From Clostridia bacterium (GTDB taxonomy: Bacteria; Bacillota; Clostridia; Oscillospirales; CAG-272), in NCBI GenBank assembly GCA_017504405.1, contig JAFVRG010000010.1, forward strand, positions 1,883 to 65,882: a DNA stretch of 64,000 bases. Reading direction: 5' to 3'. Below, piece by piece: positions 11,349-64,000 of the stretch. Within the stretch, counting starts at the first letter, position 1. Every line of letters starts with the position of its first letter. A program made the position numbers and the translations under genes. The notes under the pieces were generated by a model, which did not search any database, was not told the DNA's origin, and saw only the letters and a list, made by a program, of their open reading frames with translations.

Positions 11349-11360
11349 GGGCGTGCCCTC

Positions 11361-11546
11361 AACTATGATTGCCCTGTCGGACAAGCTATGAGGTACTACG
11401 TACCGTTATGATTGGCTTCGCCAAGTTATGAGTGACTTCGTCACGTTTAAGGTTAGACGGGCAATCATATCATAACGTTCGCAGAGCGAACTCATAACCT
11501 TTGCGTCAGCAAAATCATAACTTTCACGTAAGTGAAATCACAACTC
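11361..11546. repeat. Hairpin array A: unique 5-6 bp mini-hairpins spaced by (G/C)TATGA(T/G), then by the complement TCATAAC
   Basis: TATGA words at 11364, 11387, 11407 and 11427. Hairpins at 11392-11404, 11412-11424 and 11432-11444. TCATA(A/T) words at 11465, 11470, 11492 and 11515. Hairpins at 11477-11491, 11500-11513 and 11522-11537. An 11-bp long-range pair joins 11364-11374 to 11459-11469. Confidence 0.8.
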
Positions 11547-11551
11547 GTAAG

Positions 11552-11583
11552 AAAAAAGCTCCGATTACTCGGAGCTTTTTTTG
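11552..11583. terminator. Bidirectional rho-independent terminator
   Basis: AAAAAAGCTCCG attac TCGGAGCTTTTTTT. It serves convergent trmL (+) and the large-protein/peptide operon (-). Confidence 0.8.
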
Positions 11584-11598
11584 TTTTAGGTTATGGAA

Positions 11599-11736
11599 TT
11601 ATAAATCCCAATTTAACGGGAGTTCCCAAATTCCGACTGTATTATCATTATTTCCTTGACTGTTAATAGACAAGGTGATAAACTCCTCGGATTTAACCTT
11701 TATAACCTCAATTGAGGGCTTGTTATACTTTTTCAT
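11599..11736 (-). CDS. 45-aa peptide (MKKYNKPSIEVIKVKSEEFITLSINSQGNNDNTVGIWELPLNWDL), possible RiPP/signalling-peptide precursor
   Basis: Not in the supplied ORF track because it is under 60 aa. The ATG at 11736 is preceded by AAGGAGGGTAAACAA, 17 nt after the stop of the 1461-aa gene, and is followed by the terminator. Confidence 0.45.
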   Translation of the reverse strand: MKKYNKPSIEVIKVKSEEFITLSINSQGNNDNTVGIWELPLNWDL

Positions 11737-11753
11737 TTGTTTACCCTCCTTAA

Positions 11754-14700
11754 TTATTCCTCATCCTTGAGAGGATGGTTGATTGCCGCATTGTTTACGT
11801 ACTGCGGATATTCGGTCTTGTAGTAGGTGCATATATCAACGAGAGATACTGCTCCGCCGTTTGCCTGATAGTTCTGGCTGATACCGTCATCGTAGAGGTA
11901 GAGATACTCGCCGTCAAGCTCGATTATTACAAAACCACGGAAGAACATAAGCTGTTCCTTCGCAACAACCGTTCCGCCATTGGGAATACGGTTCGTATAG
12001 TCATCGCCGGTTACGTTGCCGTTGCGGTCGATAGAGCCGTTAATGAAATCAACGGTGTATGCAAATACTGTGGTCGTATCCTCACTGTCGGGAAGAACCG
12101 AGAGACGCTCTGCCTCCTCAAAGGACTTGAAGCCGTCATCCTCGTCAGCGATTATATCGGCAACGAAATTTTTACCGTCTGCGTCGATAGCAGTACCGTC
12201 GAAGGTAACGGTGAGGTTCTCAAAGCTGTCGTAGCCGACGAGTGCGCCGTATGCAACAACAGTTGCTTTTCTGAAGGACTCAGCCTTCGTCGTGTCGTAT
12301 GCATATACGCTTCTGATACCGACGTTCTTCGATACACGTGCCTGGAAGCCTATGAACGAGAATATCGAATCTGCGTTACCGAGCACGCCTGCAAGCTTTG
12401 CCTCAACAGCCTCCTTGCTGTCACAGCCGACAGAGCCTATCTGCGAGCCCTTGAACTCATTTACAATGAGCTTCTGCTGGGCTATGCCTGCGTTTCTGTA
12501 CGCCTCGGTGCTGACACCGTAGAAGCGGCAGATGTCAACGAAGTTGTTGATTGCAATTTCCTCGGCCGTAAGGTCGGTGATATAGATACGGAGGTAGGTG
12601 GGAGTCGTGCGGTAGTAGTAGAAGGCTGCGCCGTCCCAACCGCCGCCCTGACCAAGGTTTTCGATTTTAAGCGGCTCGTTATAGGTAGCGGAGCTTTCCC
12701 TCTCATCTACCAGAAGCTCTGCGTTAACGTAGCTGATAATATCGGTGGTGTAGGGATTTACATCGTCAACTATTGCGTCGAAGGTTCCGACGAAGTTGAT
12801 ACCGATGTAGGGGTAATCGGAAGACTTAAGGGTCTTATAGATTACATTCTGGCGGGTTCCGAATACACGGTTAGAACCCGAAAGTCCGATGTTAAGACCT
12901 ACGTTATTCATACTCACATTCATAAAGTTGCTGTATGTACCGGGAATGCTGCCGGGAGCATAGAAGATATACTGTGCGGTATATCCCGTTCCGTTTATGT
13001 TACAGGTATCGGCAGAGTTTGCGCTACCGAGTCCTGTGTTGGTTGCAGTGTTGCGGGTTGAACGCCACTGATAGCAGGGCTGACCTGCGCCCGGGTTAAC
13101 TGCATTCTTTATCTGCGCATCGGTCCAGCGGAATCCCGTATATACCATATAGTTATTGGATACTCCCGCCTTGAAGCTGACGCTGCCGTCCTCTGCATAT
13201 TCAAGGAACGGATGGATATAATCCTCGCTCTGACGCTGCTCATCGGTATATACGTTACCGTAGGTTGTGCCGTACAGCAGTGAGGGAGTGGGCGTGTAGG
13301 GAAGCAGGGTATCGGTTGCGGCCTCCGCAGTTGTCTTGTTAGAGGTATTAGAAGCCGTAAGCACGAACCAATTGCCCTTCGCCGTTCCGTCGGATATACG
13401 GACGTACGCATGGCGTCCGCCGTTATTCGTGAGCTCGAAATACTGATAGCTGCTCTGGCTTGCAAATGCGCCTATCTCAGGCTCAATGTAACGGATATTG
13501 TCGGGAACAGTCGTGGTCGAGCTGTTGTAATAACCAACGGTATTCTCGTTAATAGCGGTGAAGTCAACCTCGGCGTACAAATTCTCACGCTCAACGTAGA
13601 GCTCACGGTAGTTTACGATAAAATCAAGCTCTGAAACGAAGGCGTCAATCTTTTCCTTCATCGCAGTCTTGGTTGCATCGGTTGTGTCGTACATATTGTA
13701 CTCAGAGAAGCCGTTGTAGAAGGTGTCGTCGGCATACTCAAGAATCATTTCGATATCGTATGCGGATACGTCTACTGCGTACTTATAAATAAGGTCTGCA
13801 AAGTAGTTACGAGCCTTCTGCGCATCGGTAAGCTCAACGGAATACATACGGATATTGTCGATATATTTATCAACGGTTGCGATATATCCCGTATTTCTCG
13901 TGTGGTAGGAAAGACCCCTTGCCCTGTTGTTAACCGCAGGAAGGATAGAGGACTGATATGCAGCGCTTCCGTAATGCTTGGAGTAATCCACGTCTTTTTC
14001 GCCAAGTATATCGAATTTAAGCTCAAATTTCCTTACCACGGGGTCAAGAATTCTGCCCTCAAGAGTGAGGTTAAAGGTATGAGGCTCATCGAAGTAATAA
14101 TATTTGGACAGGGTAAGCATAGGGTTGGTGCTGTTAGAGTCCATACCGACGAAATTCGTGCATGCTCTGTTGTCCTTATAGTAAATTCTCGCATTGAACG
14201 TGGTAAAGCCCATCTGTGCCTGACCTGACAGGTCACCGAAGACACCGAGCGCAAAGTTAGCGTTGTAGTTGCTACCCGTTGCGGCAACGTTATTCTGCCA
14301 GAAATCGGAGTATTTATAGTTGGTCTGGAGCGTGAAATAACCGTAGCTGCCGTTTGCATCGGCTGTCGTCGAAAGGTTATCGTCAAGCCACAAGTCAATG
14401 TTACCCATAGTCTGGAGGTTGTTGAAATGTGCCTGAACTCCATCTCTGTCCTTAATCATATCGTAGGTGAAGAGGTTGCCCGTGTAAATACCTGCACCAA
14501 GCGATGTATTCGCCTGATTATCAGTCGTATAGGTTTTCAGATAACCGTCCTCGGTTATCGAAATTCCGCTGGTTGCGGTATCGGTATCGCCGCTCTTGTA
14601 GAAGCTGCCGACGAGGTTGTACTGACCGATATTCTGTCCGCCGAGGATTTTCAGAGCAGAGTGATACGTACCCATACCCGATGCAGAGTTAATGTCAGAG

Positions 14701-16139
14701 TTAACGGAGAGTATATCGTAGACGTCAACGTACTTTGCAAAGTGGCTGGGAACGAGGTCAACAACTGTCGTGCCGTCCTCGTCAAGAGTAACACGCTTCG
14801 TCGTGTAGTATGCCTGATCGAGGGTGGACGCATCTATGTAGGCAATGAGGTTGCCGTCGTCGTACCAGAGGTCCTCATAATAGCCGTAGTGACCCTTGCC
14901 GGGTGCGAAGTAGTAGTCAAGGATAGCCTTAAACTTATCCGCCTCGCCCGAGGTAGCAACGTCGGTGAAGTTGAGGTAGAAGTTCGCAACTCTGCGGGTG
15001 CCGTATGTCATTTGCTCGTTTATTGTGGTCATAACGTCCTTGAGCTCTACTTTAAGGCCTGTGAAGGACGGAGATTTAGCGCCTTCTCCGAACGAGTAGG
15101 GAGCCGTGAAGCCGGCGTACTGCGAGGACATACCTGCATAAAGCTGAGCTGCAAAGAGCGTAGCATCAACGCCTGCTGTTCCGTACTGGCAGAAAACCTC
15201 AGTCATCTTGTCAAGCATATCGTCGCCCGTGTAGCCTGCAAGGGTGAAGCCATTGTTGTACAGATACTCTGCAAACGCTCCCTTTACGTTCTTGCTGTCA
15301 AGGTCAGCGTCCTCGGTTGCGGGATCATCGTCTGCCTTATAGCCGTCAGGGAATCTGCCTGCAATAACGTCTCTTACTGCCTCTCTCTTTGCATCGTCAC
15401 CCTCAACGTCGAGCGATGAACCCGCCAGGATTACGAACAGGCTCGTGTCGGAGTCGTTAAGCAGTCCGAAGATGTAATCGGTAAGACCGTTTACAGACCA
15501 ATCGGCAACGTTTTCAGAGTTGAATTTTGCAGCGAGCTGGTTTCTCAGATTGTTGCTGTTTCCGTCAGCTGCAGTGTAACGTGCGCCTGCGGTGTAGAGG
15601 TCGCTGTAAACGTACGCCATCATAGCACCGAGCCTGTAATTTCCGATAATATATGTGTTGAGGAGCGTGCTGATAATATAGTTTGCTTCCAGAGGAGCAA
15701 GCATAATACGTACGTCACCGTCAACACCGTTAACGAAATAAAGCTCGTTATACAGCGCATCATAGTAGCTCATGAGGTCGCCCTCAACCGTGCCGTCACC
15801 GTTCGGGTCAATTACTGCCTTAATATCAGCAGTCAGTGCCTCGAGGGTGTCGTTGGGATAGCTGGGCTTGAGCGTCAGGGCAATTCTGCCCGCAACGTCA
15901 TCCGAGGTCATAGCCTTGTTTGACGAGAGATAATTCGTCAGCTTGGCATTTATGACGTCTGCCGTGGGAATGGTTGCCTCATCGCCGTATGCGTCGACGA
16001 GTGCGAGGAAGTGTGCCTTATTTGCATCATCGGGGAGTGCATCGTAGCCACCGTCCGCATATGACACAAGTGACATAGCAGGAATCATGCATACGAGCAT
16101 TACTGCGATCAGCACAAGGCTTAAAATTCGCTTTTTCAT
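11754..16139 (-). CDS. Large secreted protein (1461 aa) with at least two LamG/concanavalin-like jelly-roll domains
   Basis: N-terminal signal peptide MKKRILSLVLIAVMLVCMIPAMSLVSYA. Two domain-end motifs typical of LamG-type domains are present (IDNIRMYSVELTDAQKARNYF and YLRIYITDLTAEEIAINNF). No anchor motif was seen. Confidence 0.6.
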   Translation of the reverse strand: MKKRILSLVLIAVMLVCMIPAMSLVSYADGGYDALPDDANKAHFLALVDAYGDEATIPTADVINAKLTNYLSSNKAMTSDDVAGRIALTLKPSYPNDTLEALTADIKAVIDPNGDGTVEGDLMSYYDALYNELYFVNGVDGDVRIMLAPLEANYIISTLLNTYIIGNYRLGAMMAYVYSDLYTAGARYTAADGNSNNLRNQLAAKFNSENVADWSVNGLTDYIFGLLNDSDTSLFVILAGSSLDVEGDDAKREAVRDVIAGRFPDGYKADDDPATEDADLDSKNVKGAFAEYLYNNGFTLAGYTGDDMLDKMTEVFCQYGTAGVDATLFAAQLYAGMSSQYAGFTAPYSFGEGAKSPSFTGLKVELKDVMTTINEQMTYGTRRVANFYLNFTDVATSGEADKFKAILDYYFAPGKGHYGYYEDLWYDDGNLIAYIDASTLDQAYYTTKRVTLDEDGTTVVDLVPSHFAKYVDVYDILSVNSDINSASGMGTYHSALKILGGQNIGQYNLVGSFYKSGDTDTATSGISITEDGYLKTYTTDNQANTSLGAGIYTGNLFTYDMIKDRDGVQAHFNNLQTMGNIDLWLDDNLSTTADANGSYGYFTLQTNYKYSDFWQNNVAATGSNYNANFALGVFGDLSGQAQMGFTTFNARIYYKDNRACTNFVGMDSNSTNPMLTLSKYYYFDEPHTFNLTLEGRILDPVVRKFELKFDILGEKDVDYSKHYGSAAYQSSILPAVNNRARGLSYHTRNTGYIATVDKYIDNIRMYSVELTDAQKARNYFADLIYKYAVDVSAYDIEMILEYADDTFYNGFSEYNMYDTTDATKTAMKEKIDAFVSELDFIVNYRELYVERENLYAEVDFTAINENTVGYYNSSTTTVPDNIRYIEPEIGAFASQSSYQYFELTNNGGRHAYVRISDGTAKGNWFVLTASNTSNKTTAEAATDTLLPYTPTPSLLYGTTYGNVYTDEQRQSEDYIHPFLEYAEDGSVSFKAGVSNNYMVYTGFRWTDAQIKNAVNPGAGQPCYQWRSTRNTATNTGLGSANSADTCNINGTGYTAQYIFYAPGSIPGTYSNFMNVSMNNVGLNIGLSGSNRVFGTRQNVIYKTLKSSDYPYIGINFVGTFDAIVDDVNPYTTDIISYVNAELLVDERESSATYNEPLKIENLGQGGGWDGAAFYYYRTTPTYLRIYITDLTAEEIAINNFVDICRFYGVSTEAYRNAGIAQQKLIVNEFKGSQIGSVGCDSKEAVEAKLAGVLGNADSIFSFIGFQARVSKNVGIRSVYAYDTTKAESFRKATVVAYGALVGYDSFENLTVTFDGTAIDADGKNFVADIIADEDDGFKSFEEAERLSVLPDSEDTTTVFAYTVDFINGSIDRNGNVTGDDYTNRIPNGGTVVAKEQLMFFRGFVIIELDGEYLYLYDDGISQNYQANGGAVSLVDICTYYKTEYPQYVNNAAINHPLKDEE

Positions 16140-16171
16140 AGTATTCTCCTTTTTATAAATTTGTTGATTAT

Positions 16172-16200
16172 ATTATATAACAATGCGTGAATTAATTCAA
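16172..16200 (-). promoter_or_regulatory. Sigma-A type promoter of the 1461-aa protein gene
   Basis: On the minus strand: TTGAAT (16200-16195), a 17-nt spacer, TATAAT (16177-16172). It lies about 30 nt upstream of the AAAAAGGAG RBS and the ATG at 16139. Confidence 0.55.
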
Positions 16201-16248
16201 TTGATATATTAGACAAAATTTCGCACCTTTCGTTTGTGCAACATTAAC

Positions 16249-16272
16249 AAAAAAGTTCCGACTTAGCGTGTT
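16249..16272. repeat. Direct-repeat copy of the left arm of the 16374-16420 terminator
   Basis: AAAAAAGTTCCGACTTAGCGTGTT versus AAAAAACTCCGACTTAGCGTGTT at 16374-16396. They differ by one substitution and one 1-nt indel. The two copies bracket hairpin array B. Confidence 0.8.
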
Positions 16273-16285
16273 GTCTTTTCGGGAA

Positions 16286-16370
16286 TACGTAATGAAATCT
16301 GCCACGGGCAGATGAAATCCACCTATGGTGGATGAAGTCGCTATGCGACGAAATCCTGCTACGCAGGGTA
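16286..16370. repeat. Hairpin array B: four unique 5-bp hairpins spaced by ATGAAAT/ATGAAGT/GAAAT
   Basis: ATGAAAT at 16292 and 16312, ATGAAGT at 16332. Hairpins CTGCC acg GGCAG (16299-16311), CCACC tat GGTGG (16319-16331), GTCGC tat GCGAC (16337-16349) and CCTGC tac GCAGG (16355-16367). Confidence 0.8.
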
Positions 16371-16373
16371 AAG

Positions 16374-16420
16374 AAAAAACTCCGACTTAGCGTGTTACTC
16401 ACGCTAAGTCGGAGTTTTTT
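16374..16420. terminator. Bidirectional rho-independent terminator (15-bp stem)
   Basis: AAAAAA CTCCGACTTAGCGTG ttact CACGCTAAGTCGGAG TTTTTT, immediately after the stop of 16422..17453. Confidence 0.85.
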
Positions 16421-16421
16421 G

Positions 16422-17453
16422 TTATTTCGTATTCAAAACACGCCGTATCATCCACTGAGCATCGCCCATTGCATTCAAGACGTTTAATTTAATATTTGGG
16501 TTTTTACCCTGCCACACCACAAACAGCTCATGAACAAACGCTTGACCAAGCTCTTCAACGCCCGCGAAATCAAGGTCTGCCTCCTCAAAGCTGAGAAGGA
16601 GCTCGCCCAATCTGCGTGCCTCGGAGCGTGATACGGGATATCCGTTCTGGAAAAAGTGCGCTACCGGAATAGATGTTTTTATAAACCCCTCGTCTACGGT
16701 TGAAAATCTGTCGAACACCTCTCTTGAGGTTTTTTTACTGTAATTGTTGAGCGACATTATTACCAATGTTCCGTTGCTTTCCTCGGCTTCACGTCCGCCG
16801 TAATTCTCCCAATCATCCTTAAAATTATCTCTGACAAACACAGCACGGTCGGAAAAAATCATAAAACTATCCATAAGGTGAGATGTGAAGAATATCCCCT
16901 CGCCTGAATGAGCGCTTTTATTGGTAGTGAACTTTCCCGCAAGCAAAATTGAGGCACATTCCGCAAGAGGTGTATCCTCCCCCCTCTCGCTTAAAATGAA
17001 GTTTCTGATGTTTTTGAATATACCTATTCCGTTGTCAAATATGTGCACCTCGGTTTTGACCGCATCTCTTGTCACTCTCACCTCAATTATGTCGGATTTT
17101 GAATGTTCTATCGCATTATTCATCATTTCGCAGAAGGCATACTGCCATATACGGAAGACGTTTTTGGGCAAATCCGAAAGCATAGGCTCAATATCCGACG
17201 CAAATACTCTCGCCTCGTCCAATTTGCCGTTATTGGCGTATGAAAAATCCTTTTGGGTAAAAGCGAGGTAATACTCATTTTTATTCTCATGCTTATATAC
17301 CGTTCCCTCGTCGAGCAGCTCCTTCAAATAATTATAAACAGTAGACTTTGATTTGCCGAAATTCTCAACGGTTTTCGCCACCACTGCCGCATCATTAACA
17401 GAAATCAAGCCCAACATATACTGCTTTATCAATTCCTTGGTTGTATCTCTCAT
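16422..17453 (-). CDS. Fusion protein: N-terminal winged-HTH, GHKL (HATPase_c) ATPase/kinase-like core, C-terminal STAS-like (DUF4325-type) domain
   Basis: STVYNYLKELLDEGTV (wHTH). EMMNNAIEHS (N box), FDNGIGIF (G1) and SGEGIFF (G2). The C-terminal LDFAGVEELGQAFVHELF matches the STAS-like DUF4325 pattern as I recall it. Confidence 0.6.
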   Translation of the reverse strand: MRDTTKELIKQYMLGLISVNDAAVVAKTVENFGKSKSTVYNYLKELLDEGTVYKHENKNEYYLAFTQKDFSYANNGKLDEARVFASDIEPMLSDLPKNVFRIWQYAFCEMMNNAIEHSKSDIIEVRVTRDAVKTEVHIFDNGIGIFKNIRNFILSERGEDTPLAECASILLAGKFTTNKSAHSGEGIFFTSHLMDSFMIFSDRAVFVRDNFKDDWENYGGREAEESNGTLVIMSLNNYSKKTSREVFDRFSTVDEGFIKTSIPVAHFFQNGYPVSRSEARRLGELLLSFEEADLDFAGVEELGQAFVHELFVVWQGKNPNIKLNVLNAMGDAQWMIRRVLNTK

Positions 17454-18521: not shown

Positions 18522-19610
18522 ATGGCAGACACGGTAAAAATGATAGAAAACGAGCGTGTACACACCGATTTGAAAACACACGATTTTTATTATGCTCTGC
18601 CCGAGGAGCTGATAGCACAGACGCCGTCGGAGAGGCGTGATTTCTCACGGCTGATGGTGCTTGACCGAAAAAGCGAGGACTGTTCGGTTGAACACAGACA
18701 TTTTTACGACGTTATCGACTACCTTAACCCTGAGGACGTGCTGGTCGTAAACTCCTCCCGTGTAATCCCTGCACGCCTGCTCGGCGTTACCGATAAAACG
18801 GGGGCGTCTATCGAGCTTTTGCTCCTCAAAATGCTCGAAAACGGCGAATGGGAGACCCTCGTGCGCCCTGGCAAGAGGGCTAAGGTGGGTGCATCATTTA
18901 CCTTCGGCGAGGGCGCTCTGCGAGCAACCGTCACCGATATAACCGAGGGCGGAAACAGGACTGTGAAATTTGAATACTCGGATAAATTTTCAAGCATATA
19001 CGAGGCGCTCGACTGTGTTGGAAATATGCCCCTGCCCCCCTATATAACCGAAAAGCTCGCCGACAGCGAGCGTTACCAGACGGTGTACGCAAAGGAGCGT
19101 GGCTCTGCCGCCGCACCTACTGCGGGGCTTCATTTCACGCCCGAGCTGATTGAGAAAATAAAGGCAAAGGGCGTGGGCTTTTGCGAGGTTACTCTGCACG
19201 TGGGGCTCGGCACGTTCCGTCCCGTCAAGGAAGAGGATATCGAGGCACACCTTATGCATTCCGAGCATTTTTCGATAAGCCGTGAGGTAGCCGAGGAAAT
19301 AAACAAACGCCGTGCAAACGGTGGAAGAATTATCGCAGTCGGCACAACCGCCTGCCGTGTGCTCGAAAGTGCGAGCGCACCCGACGGCACTCTGTCGGAA
19401 ATGAATGCAGACACGAAAATTTTCATATACCCCGGGTATAAATTCAAGGCGGTTGATGCTCTGATTACGAATTTCCACCTACCCGAGAGCACGCTCATTA
19501 TGCTGGTCAGCGCACTTGCGGGCAAGGATAGGATTATGAAGGCATACGAGAGCGCCGTAAATGAAAAATACAGATTTTTTTCATTCGGCGATGCAATGCT
19601 CATCCTGTGA
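18522..19610 (+). CDS. queA: S-adenosylmethionine:tRNA ribosyltransferase-isomerase
   Basis: The ATG at 18522 has GGAGGGTG upstream. [36 protein letters not shown] and [10 protein letters not shown] are QueA blocks. The exact start is uncertain (18498, 18522 or 18540). Confidence 0.9.
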
Positions 19611-19620
19611 AGGATGAGCT

Positions 19621-19728
19621 AATGAATAATGAAGGCGCTTCGCCGATGAATAATGAAAAATGAATGAAGATTTTCGCCAAAGCGAAAATCAACCGAAATT
19701 ATTCATTATTCACTATTCATTATTCATT
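19621..19728. repeat. Hairpin array C: nested inverted repeats of AATGAATAATGAA around short hairpins
   Basis: 19621-19633 AATGAATAATGAA is the exact reverse complement of 19716-19728. 19645-19657 pairs over 11 nt with 19702-19713. Hairpins lie at 19634-19644 and 19670-19689 (8 bp). A 9-bp hairpin at 19598-19619 spans the queA stop. Confidence 0.75.
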
Positions 19729-19781
19729 TCTCCCGTATGCGGAAAAAGAATAAATAATAAATTTGGATAAAGGATTTATTT

Positions 19782-63071: not shown

Positions 63072-63102
63072 AGCAAAGCCCCGATTGCTCGGGGCTTTTT
63101 GA
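63072..63102. terminator. Rho-independent terminator
   Basis: AAGCCCCG attgct CGGGGCTT followed by TTT. Confidence 0.6.
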
Positions 63103-63104
63103 GT

Positions 63105-63455
63105 TTAATTTTCGGCATTACCCTTGACCGTAGTAATAGAAGAAATAAGGATTCTTCTTATTCTACCTGCTATATTGGCAAGCTTTGAAAAGGTAGCTTC
63201 GCTTATAATATCAGTTTTCACAAAAAGATTGAGCCAATATTCCGTTTCGTGGCACTCCTTAAGAGCTATTTGTAATTTTGCGGCAAAATCCGCCTTACTC
63301 TGCGCATAGTTTGCCTCATGCACATTTGCACCGATGCTTGTACCGTTTCTCAGAAGCTGATTTTTCAGCACAAATTTTCCTTTCAAGCTCTCGCAGAGCT
63401 TCACAATCTCCACAGAGAATTCCATTGATAAATCTAACAGTATGTTATCTGACAT
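63105..63455 (-). CDS. Four-helix-bundle protein (23S rRNA intervening-sequence protein / Avd-like family)
   Basis: Start at 63455 (MSDNILLDLSMEFSVEIVKLCESL). QLLRNGTSIGANVHEANYAQSKADFAAKLQIALKECHETEYWL is the family signature as I recall it. Confidence 0.75.
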   Translation of the reverse strand: MSDNILLDLSMEFSVEIVKLCESLKGKFVLKNQLLRNGTSIGANVHEANYAQSKADFAAKLQIALKECHETEYWLNLFVKTDIISEATFSKLANIAGRIRRILISSITTVKGNAEN

Positions 63456-63464
63456 ATTGCCTCT

Positions 63465-63699
63465 GATGAAATGCGGCGGCGCCGCATGAAATGATGCGTT
63501 GCATCTTGAAATGTAGCAGACTACGCCGCTACATGAAATGCACAAGCGTGCATAGAATGAAATTTGCCCTTACTAAAATATGCGCCGCAAAAGCGGCGCA
63601 TTTCATGATATTTTATATCATTTCATTCACTTTAAGTGAATTTCATTTGCACAGCCTGCTGGGCAAATTTCATTGGAAGCGAATCAACGATTCGCTTCC
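63465..63699. repeat. Hairpin array D: five (A/T)TGAAAT-spaced and four ATTTCAT-spaced unique hairpins around a 9-bp central hairpin
   Basis: ATGAAAT at 63466, 63486, 63533 and 63557, and TTGAAAT at 63506. ATTTCAT at 63600, 63620, 63640 and 63667. Hairpins at 63473-85, 63493-505, 63513-32, 63540-51, 63580-601, 63607-19, 63627-39 and 63675-99. A 14-bp long-range pair joins 63556-69 to 63661-74. Confidence 0.85.
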
Positions 63700-63787
63700 T
63701 CTATGGCAACCGCAACCGCAACAGTCATACCAACCATGGGGTTGTTACCTGTTGCTACGGCTTTCATTTATCGTCGTTTGGTATCAT

Positions 63788-63816
63788 CTACAGACATCTC
63801 TGTAGAGCTATTTTTT
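63788..63816 (+). terminator. Possible plus-strand terminator after the structured region
   Basis: CTACAGA catc TCTGTAG, then AGCTA, then TTTTTT. The T-run is displaced 5 nt from the stem. Confidence 0.35.
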
Positions 63817-64000
63817 GTTATTTACCGAATGGTGAAACACGAGGAGCGATTGATTATCATTTCGTGACATTAGGTATCATTTGTGCAGATGTCGGCAAAA
63901 TGTCGGCACGCCGTCAAATTTATCCCCTTAGTCATCATCGTTGTCGGCAAACATACTCTCAAGTATTTTACCACCAATCTCTGACATCTTATCGGTTAAG

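Follow-up and report, generated by a model that had tools for sequence, protein, structure and literature searches.

Array D of a Clostridia genome appears to be a full-length Gut-1 element with two inverted halves

Array D is a series of short hairpins at positions 63466-63699 of the window, that is, of the whole 64,000-nucleotide stretch of Clostridia bacterium DNA that was analysed (GenBank assembly GCA_017504405.1, contig JAFVRG010000010.1, positions 1,883 to 65,882). By sequence comparison, array D appears clearly homologous to the Gut-1 RNA of Rfam (RF01706), and it is probably a full-length member of this known, functionally blank family rather than an element of an undescribed kind, the published 77-nt Gut-1 motif being, it seems, only one half of the full element. 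When Rfam was searched with E-value thresholds, the Gut-1 model matched array D over its full length on the minus strand (63595-63675, 48.6 bits, E = 9e-9), and a second match was obtained on the plus strand (63423-63517, 33.4 bits). The gathering score of the family is 50; the formal threshold was missed by 1.4 bits, and nothing in the window was reported by Rfam at gathering thresholds. The orthologue of array D in a related genome (locus L125) scored 50.0 bits and paralogous elements scored 50.5-76.4 bits, while a scan of 20 related loci at the curated Rfam thresholds gave 22 Gut-1 matches of 50-76 bits, which, wherever this was checked, shared their strand with the adjacent gene or tRNA. 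The Gut-1 consensus consists of a hairpin, a GAA linker within UGAAAU and a hairpin, three times over, and this arrangement was found in array D both by alignment to the model and by hairpin covariation in 49 relatives. An earlier note on this DNA, made from the sequence alone, had known of no described element with such an organisation; the database search instead placed half of array D in a known family. The strand of the Rfam match is referred to below as the Gut-1 orientation; for array D it is the minus strand, and for array A, a second full element in the window, the plus strand. Array A itself gave no Rfam match.

Read along the plus strand, array D begins with five copies of a 7-nt word (ATGAAAT at 63466, 63486, 63533 and 63557, and TTGAAAT at 63506) and continues with four copies of the inverse anti-word ATTTCAT (63600, 63620, 63640 and 63667). 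A perfect hairpin lies between every neighbouring pair of words, and no hairpin sequence is repeated. Over 14 bp, AATGAAATTTGCCC (63556-69) is perfectly complementary to GGGCAAATTTCATT (63661-74), in agreement with the long-range complement that had been noted earlier as enclosing units of the array; the words, anti-words, hairpins and coordinates given by the earlier note were likewise reproduced base for base. The words are spaced 16-28 bp apart, out of helical phase, and helically phased protein boxes were rejected on the basis of this spacing. No promoter-like site was detected within array D, and the central hairpin, on the minus strand, is the one site in it that resembles a terminator; a U-rich tail comparable to that of array D was not seen after the central hairpin in the relatives read by eye. 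In Gut-1 orientation, the last anti-word abuts the ribosome-binding site of a gene for a four-helix-bundle (4HB) protein. The positions of these and other features are summarized in Table 1.

Table 1. Features of array D, its neighbours and the other arrays of the window (positions are those of the window)
Feature	Position	Strand	Remarks
Hairpin H0	63675-63699	minus	11-bp stem GGAAGCGAATC/GATTCGCTTCC; immediately before the element in Gut-1 orientation; holds the stop codon of the upstream gene remnant
Gut-1 proper (word half in Gut-1 orientation)	63595-63675	minus	AAUGAAAU+UUGCCC, hairpin 1 with conserved C.U mismatch, then two UGAAAU-hairpin units
Long-range stem, one arm (GGGCAAATTTCATT on plus strand)	63661-63674		in the minimum-free-energy fold of both strands
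Central hairpin, 9 bp (ATGCGCCGC/GCGGCGCAT)	63580-63601		present in every relative, each of different sequence
Long-range stem, other arm (AATGAAATTTGCCC on plus strand)	63556-63569		covaries across loci
Anti-word half in Gut-1 orientation	63466-63563	minus	five AUUUCA(U) words (plus-strand ATGAAAT) around four unique hairpins
4HB gene, 116 aa	63105-63455	minus	PF05635 86.7 bits; TIGR02436 92.3 bits; start codon 10 nt after the last word
GGGtGRT-family (PF14057) gene, 3' remnant (ending in GNNPMVGMTVAVAVAIEEANR, stop)	63700-63770	minus	in relatives an intact gene upstream of the element, same strand
Array A, full element, words TTATGA/TCATAAC	11361-11546	plus	between trmL stop codon and bidirectional terminator 11549-11580
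Word-only array and terminator	16292-16412	plus	ATGAAAT, ATGAAAT, ATGAAGT, GAAAT and four hairpins (array 16292-16370); model R1 46.3 bits

The Gut-1 motif was described by Weinberg et al. in 2010 (PMC2864571) as a 77-nt motif with 43 examples, all from human gut metagenomes; it was judged to be an RNA and not cis-regulatory, and nothing was said on its function. Rfam files it under "Gene; sRNA" (small RNA), and in the literature searched we found no paper mentioning Gut-1 beyond that of 2010. The supplementary alignment of the same study, which includes flanking sequence (PMC2864571), contains members with the word GUGAUAU and, downstream, AUAUCAC words with hairpins and a UAUAUUCGCC/GGCGAAUAUA stem. 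The dyad grammar and the covariation of its words are already within the 2010 data yet outside the published motif. The present elements resemble Gut-1 as published in their three short hairpins joined by GAA within (A/G)UGAAAU words, in their occurrence in gut bacteria and in their frequent location just after a tRNA and terminator. The present unit is two to three times longer than the published motif. It adds the anti-word half and the central hairpin, a long-range stem that covaries and has a local hairpin as its alternative, several word classes, and pairing by Watson-Crick rules only. New here are the element at full length, its paired alternative helices and its word classes, the concerted evolution of stems within Watson-Crick pairing, the positional rules and a partial coupling to the 4HB gene.

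Chance is excluded as the origin of array D. Loci with at least three words followed by at least three anti-words numbered two in the window and zero in each of 100 dinucleotide shuffles, far above the shuffled level against which the earlier note had suggested that such arrays be compared. Chains of word, hairpin and word accounted for 18 word hits in the window, compared with a mean of 1.3 and a maximum of 4 in the shuffles. The folding of array D against shuffled sequences gave z = -7.1 for RNA of the plus strand, -7.9 for RNA of the minus strand and -8.9 for DNA of the plus strand; the value for array A was -3.1. A scan of the window for hairpin clusters was too noisy to be of use.

Related loci were collected by scanning a collection with one genome per species for the exact word pattern, which returned at least 120 loci. 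Among the matches listed, 57 (in 53 loci) had at least two downstream ATTTCA words, and almost all had none or one upstream, indicating that the word/anti-word grammar read from the window is conserved in related genomes. Almost all of these 53 true loci, among the matches listed, belonged to uncultured gut or rumen Clostridia (Acutalibacteraceae, Oscillospiraceae, Faecousia, Ruminiclostridium and "Eubacteriales" bins). When the viral contigs of IMG/VR were scanned for this word pattern, none of the 119 hits had the array grammar, and a phage origin of the elements was rejected on this result. The full element appears to be an intergenic, multi-copy unit of ~170-230 nt. In Gut-1 orientation it starts with H0, which is either a hairpin overlapping a stop codon or a bidirectional intrinsic terminator that follows a tRNA or gene. 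There follow an AA-word 1 fused to a 5' arm, X, and hairpin 1, in which X pairs with a local and often imperfect X'; two or three more word-hairpin units lead to the central hairpin, after which a second, perfect X' is fused to anti-word 1 and succeeded by three to five anti-word-hairpin units. Each half comprises 3-5 hairpin units, with words on one side of the central hairpin and anti-words on the other. The halves are joined by the long-range stem, whose 3' arm can instead pair locally in a hairpin, and the 3' end of the element meets the promoter of the next gene or, in array D, its ribosome-binding site.

A covariance model, R1, was built from seven elements. It matched array D on the plus strand at 63462-63678 (74.6 bits) and the word-only array of the window at 16308-16424 (46.3 bits), and uncovered further copies of the element inside 8-kb loci. 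In an alignment of 49 elements, which was fitted to the structure by means of R1, 93.4% of cells were paired, compared with 31-40% when the partners were slid by 1-3 columns; compensatory changes occurred in 40 of the 49 pairs, with 561 double-changed cells, and the observed values were reached in none of 500 shuffles. In an independent parse, for which the sequences were simply cut wherever a word occurred, 167 distinct hairpins with a total of 1,096 Watson-Crick pairs were obtained. The long-range helix was 97.3% paired and covaried in eight of nine pairs, its arm being TTCGCC, TTTGCCC, TTCGTTCC, CCACCC, CCGCC or CCGTCT at different loci, and the local hairpin, with which it is mutually exclusive, was 95.4% paired and covaried in all five. 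Because both pairings covary, two copies of X and one X' covary together. These data indicate, as had been supposed from the window alone, that the structure of array D is under strong selection.

Three classes of word and anti-word were distinguished: TGAAAT/ATTTCA, TGATAT/ATATCA and TTATGA/TCATAA, the last in array A. The earlier note was correct in its view that word and anti-word change together between loci. A metagenome scan with the pattern GTGATAT independently recovered the TGATAT/ATATCA class (L141, L187 with two copies, L229, L232, L240 and L255), and in these elements the arms have shifted from the AAAT type to the ATAT type, matching the word. Different classes coexist in one genome, as do arrays A and D in the window and two classes in each of L062 and L079. 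The dyad is not obligatory: word-only arrays exist, such as that at 16292-16370 of the window, and the array of L376 is of mixed words, with three GTGATAT units followed by four ATGAAAT units.

The pairing is nearly the same whichever strand is read. Of the ~2,100 cells of the 49-element alignment, 2,016 were Watson-Crick; G.U-type cells numbered 41 for one strand and 39 for its complement, and the independent parse gave 6 G.T and 4 A.C pairs beside its Watson-Crick pairs. As G.U is as rare as A.C, neither strand looks like the sole RNA strand, and an assignment of the RNA strand from wobble pairs, which we attempted, was not possible with symmetric counts. Perfect Watson-Crick pairing on both strands is not needed by an RNA acting from one strand. 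Both options of the earlier note, RNA and single-stranded DNA, therefore stand, the near absence of wobble on either strand keeping a DNA-level or two-strand option alive. The loops have a polarity: GAA, GCA and GTA triloops closed by C:G occur on the strand reading ATTTCA, and their complements occur in the other half. Together with GNNA loops, these triloops made up ~40 of 69 loops on the ATTTCA strand in our own tally, while TTC, TAC and TAAC were found in the other half. The c(GNA)g motif is a hyper-stable DNA mini-hairpin (PMC13037366, PMC3201870).

Stems change on both sides at once. At 80-90% identity, 317 stem changes were two-sided and 123 one-sided. In L064, two copies share 96% identity over 197 nt; by eye they differ at ~7 positions, four of which form two compensatory pairs within H0. 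Symmetric insertions at the hairpin tip were observed between close strains in H0 (L131, L133, L134 and L136), and a symmetric difference at the tip was also found in the last hairpin of the two L064 copies and between the window terminators at 11549-11580 and 16378-16412. In one example, CTCCGA-TTAC-TCGGAG corresponds to CTCCGA[CTTAGCGTG]TTAC[TCACGCTAAG]TCGGAG; the outer stem was kept, and sometimes the loop. Such symmetric insertions suggest a hairpin-templated remodelling.

The elements occupy particular positions relative to genes. Among the matches listed, a Gut-1-oriented element followed a co-oriented gene or tRNA in 39 of the 47 cases with a determinable neighbour (83%), a proportion also roughly expected of any feature of fixed orientation to replication in a Firmicute, given gene-strand bias. 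A tRNA lay within 120 nt of 19 of the 57 elements among the matches listed (18 of these 19 in Gut-1 orientation) and of none of 57 chance hits, and the adjacent tRNAs represented ten amino-acid identities. At the tRNA-linked loci read by eye, the element was preceded by a good intrinsic terminator and followed by the next gene's extended -10 promoter, and belonged to neither transcript. A 4HB gene was present in the locus for 14 of the 57 elements among the matches listed, about ten of them directly behind the element, and again for none of the 57 chance hits.

The association was also examined from the side of the gene, using three 4HB homologues of 72-73% identity chosen solely by the length of their contig. 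All three had an orthologous element immediately upstream on the same strand, in the order GGGtGRT gene, H0 with the stop codon, element, and ribosome-binding site and start of the 4HB gene; at these loci no U-tract terminator was seen between the GGGtGRT gene and the 4HB gene, nor was there space for a promoter. The hairpins of the orthologues differed by compensatory changes, hairpin 1 kept its C.U mismatch, the long-range stem lost at most one base, and the H0 site was occupied by a different hairpin. The link to 4HB genes that had been suspected from the window is thus real in both directions but partial, since only about one element in five (~20%) has a directly following 4HB gene. A search with the 4HB protein returned 3,755 relatives at E <= 1e-10, most of ~70-77% identity, and the literature on 4HB proteins together with tRNA offered no lead. 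Most of the 4HB homologues were on contigs shorter than 1-2 kb, consistent with multi-copy genes next to repeats that break assemblies; for this reason the elements appear to break metagenome assemblies.

Copies of the element and their turnover were followed in the window and in relatives. In array A, a stem of UAUGAUUGCCC and GGGCAAUCAUA encloses three hairpins and is succeeded by three anti-word hairpins; this is the grammar of array D on the opposite strand, as reported earlier, with another word pair. Array A follows trmL (TrmL of the window is MBR2339872.1), and in relatives with TrmL of 76-83% identity the trmL locus had a plain terminator only and no array A. In L376, whose TrmL is 97% identical, trmL runs into a word-only array of three GTGATAT and four ATGAAAT words that is 90% identical to window 16291-16414. 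Since the L376 array continues straight into the segment corresponding to 16291-16414, the window carries an extra 4.9 kb between two arrays (11349-16290, comprising array A, its terminator and a gene of 1,461 aa), an indel bounded by arrays. Discrete copies of ~143-197 nt with 96-99% identity exist in relatives. The two 197-nt copies of L064 (3751-3947 and 5090-5286) are 1.3 kb apart with a 4HB gene between them, and one starts at the CCA end of a tRNA; in L058 (1204-1776), three copies are found within 600 nt, two in tandem with 98.6% identity and one inverted. When the flanks of 49 elements were compared, neither target-site duplications nor terminal inverted repeats exceeded the control level, and a miniature inverted-repeat transposable element or other classical transposon was rejected accordingly. 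No HUH or Y1 transposase and no RAYT was found among the best 25 of 89 Pfam families matched by 50 window proteins.

We tentatively regard array D as a structural module similar to repetitive extragenic palindromes (REP) and bacterial interspersed mosaic elements (BIMEs); such a module may sit where transcription units end, could fold on either strand, and would have stems that are maintained at the DNA level. Short G+C-rich hairpins on a constant A/U-rich linker would be extruded each time that one of the strands becomes single-stranded, be it as DNA or in the form of a transcript, and the extruded hairpins may act as a structural block or insulator between adjacent transcription units. At the array D locus, the minus-strand transcript would carry the element as a highly folded spacer or leader ahead of the 4HB gene. 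The arms would change in concert at the DNA level, probably through hairpin-templated correction, and so stay perfectly Watson-Crick, a process that might account for the conservation of structure while each hairpin sequence is unique. Both the insulator or stabiliser role and the mechanism of templated correction are what we infer from the observations described above. The REP/BIME (REPIN) elements of proteobacteria are likewise multi-copy extragenic hairpins, clustering in both orientations at transcription-unit 3' ends, with a short conserved sequence at the hairpin foot and variation between strains (PMC6006769, PMC2817692). The short guide at the hairpin foot, together with both orientations at gene 3' ends, has its counterpart in Gut-1 arrays, in which every hairpin is bordered by a constant 6-7-nt word, one half is the inverse of the other and the element is downstream of genes or tRNAs. 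Within a genome, the hairpins of REP elements keep their sequence, and they depend on RAYT (TnpA-REP), whereas in Gut-1 arrays only the linker and the structure are conserved and no RAYT is among the families listed for the window; within a genome only the words are shared, a few recent duplicates excepted.

Several points weigh against this reading. REP families are defined by a conserved sequence and a RAYT transposase; the first does not apply to Gut-1 arrays, and the second was not seen among the 25 of 89 matched Pfam families listed for the window proteins. The covariation counts come from an alignment fitted to the structure and are therefore biased towards structure. The 83% co-orientation would also fit a strand-specific RNA role or a replication-direction bias, and the preferences for triloops and closing pairs could equally stem from RNA or from composition effects. 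Word-only arrays show that the dyad is dispensable, and a simple hairpin-block model leaves the constant word and its covarying anti-word unexplained.

A functional RNA of one strand, either a Gut-1 small RNA or a cis-acting leader or 3' untranslated region, is a possible but on balance doubtful explanation. Here the minus-strand RNA would switch between the local hairpin and the long-range stem, with the UGAAAU/AUUUCA linkers possibly bound by a multimeric protein, perhaps the 4HB protein, or serving as RNase sites; such an RNA would control expression of the downstream gene or titrate the binding factor. The better Rfam match is indeed on the strand of the 4HB gene, array A occupies a 3' untranslated region, with a stop codon before it and the terminator behind it, 83% of elements are co-oriented with the upstream gene, and of the two mutually exclusive pairings each is conserved, as it would be in a switch. 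In the orthologues, no terminator or promoter was seen from the upstream gene through the element to the 4HB ribosome-binding site, and the element must therefore be transcribed there; all 4HB orthologues tested, and about ten of the 14 4HB genes among the matches listed, are directly behind the element. However, G.U pairs are no commoner than A.C, which is unusual under selection of one RNA strand, and the halves have complementary loop preferences, so that no single strand bears the favoured GNA loops throughout. The tRNA-linked elements read by eye lie between a terminator and the next promoter, outside both transcripts, and only ~20% of elements have a 4HB gene. Binding by one word-specific protein is further opposed by the different words found in elements of one genome.

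We consider it unlikely that the arrays are non-autonomous mobile elements of single-stranded DNA, derived from IS200/IS605 or similar to REP/RAYT, in which a unit of H0 and array is copied beside terminators and tRNA 3' ends with the 4HB gene as cargo or helper. The near-identical copies of 143-197 nt (96-99%) have unrelated flanks, one of them begins exactly at a tRNA CCA end, and they occur in both orientations within the L058 cluster; the arrays are present or absent between close strains and mark the edges of the 4.9-kb indel. The lack of target-site duplications and terminal inverted repeats would be as in IS200/IS605, the 4HB homologues are mostly on very short contigs, and a 4HB cargo or helper would echo the 4HB reading frames inside 23S rRNA intervening sequences. 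The conserved word at the hairpin foot also resembles a guide sequence (PMC6006769). Most copies, however, share no hairpin sequence and are therefore old or were not copied as units, while the few near-identical ones are explicable by local duplication or gene conversion. No HUH/Y1 transposase was among the best Pfam families described above, none of the 119 IMG/VR hits was an element, and the 4HB protein has, to our knowledge, no nuclease or recombinase motif. A yet more improbable proposal is that Gut-1 arrays form a new class of structure-only element, in which palindromes would be written at hairpin tips and kept complementary by a templated process at the DNA level that alters both arms together, with a fold that could switch on either strand and consists of exchangeable word and anti-word linkers, and with 4HB proteins of the 23S-intervening-sequence family as dedicated partners. 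We find it hard to credit, finally, that array D is a double-stranded site array (iterons, arm-type sites of an integrase or transcription-factor boxes) whose protein would read the 7-mers first directly and then inverted. The words do run direct and then inverted across ~235 bp, and a tyrosine integrase gene adjoins array D; their spacing of 16-28 bp is nevertheless out of helical phase, words differ among elements of one genome, the sequence between them is strongly selected for pairing that boxes would not need, and the integrase island is an insertion that is not at the orthologous loci.

Other known systems share some features with Gut-1 arrays. The intervening sequences of 23S rRNA carry a PF05635 reading frame beside an extended, variably present hairpin structure. 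Array D resembles them in having a 4HB gene of the same Pfam family beside a variably present hairpin structure, but is outside any rRNA gene, has no single long stem around the gene, and belongs to a family in which most elements have no 4HB gene. Integron attC sites are similar to Gut-1 arrays in that structure is conserved over sequence, in their short inverse core words and in their potential activity as folded single strands; each gene cassette has a single attC, an imperfect palindrome with extrahelical bases that requires IntI, whereas Gut-1 arrays are series of perfect mini-hairpins and have neither cassettes nor IntI. A CRISPR array was rejected, in line with the earlier note, because the conserved unit is just 7 nt, the unique parts are palindromic and there was no meaningful repeat match; the only CRISPR repeat match listed was CRISPR-DR28 on the terminator at 63072-63097 (17 bits, gathering 35, E = 5.9).

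Rfam has listed Gut-1 from 2010 onwards as a "gut only" motif of 77 nt without organism, context or function. It now gains a host range (uncultured Clostridia bins from gut and rumen), a full architecture with two exclusive pairings, positional rules and a concerted, Watson-Crick-only signature. If the 4HB link is functional, it would provide the first testable handle on an orphan protein family, and if the structure-only proposal were true, that family would gain a nucleic-acid substrate. If the stems are maintained at the DNA level, the arrays would be a natural system in which to study hairpin-templated mutation.

Some minor observations concern the arrays and their surroundings. The A-tract and 5' arm of the terminator behind the word-only array are repeated directly on both sides of this array (16256-16275 and 16378-16398). 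The repeat looks like an insertion with duplication of one hairpin arm, and the same X...X...X' layout is found inside full elements. A related but differently built structure was observed downstream of queA (19600-19730), where tandem AATGAA words surround the hairpins GGCG CTT CGCC and GATTTTCGC CAAA GCGAAAATC and are followed by four tandem TTCATT anti-words; its match to R1 was weak (13.9 bits). A look-up of identical proteins for strain variants of array D retrieved contigs that were identical, and the Logan contig L122 (1-570) passes, within hairpin 1, from array D into a foreign reading frame rich in G+C, and is probably an assembly chimera formed at the repeat. On the other side of array D, an integrase island was inserted at GGTAACAACCCCATGG in the 3' end of the GGGtGRT gene, of which the last ~25 codons are left beside the array; this island was not present at the orthologous loci. 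A tyrosine integrase gene (407 aa) and an HTH_17 gene lie just past the right end of the window (window 63700-64000, minus strand; L121:1-1895), and the site in the GGGtGRT gene, at which L133-L135 have other junctions, looks like an integration hot spot. The window otherwise contains housekeeping genes, including those for SecA, Tgt, QueA, MutS and LigA.

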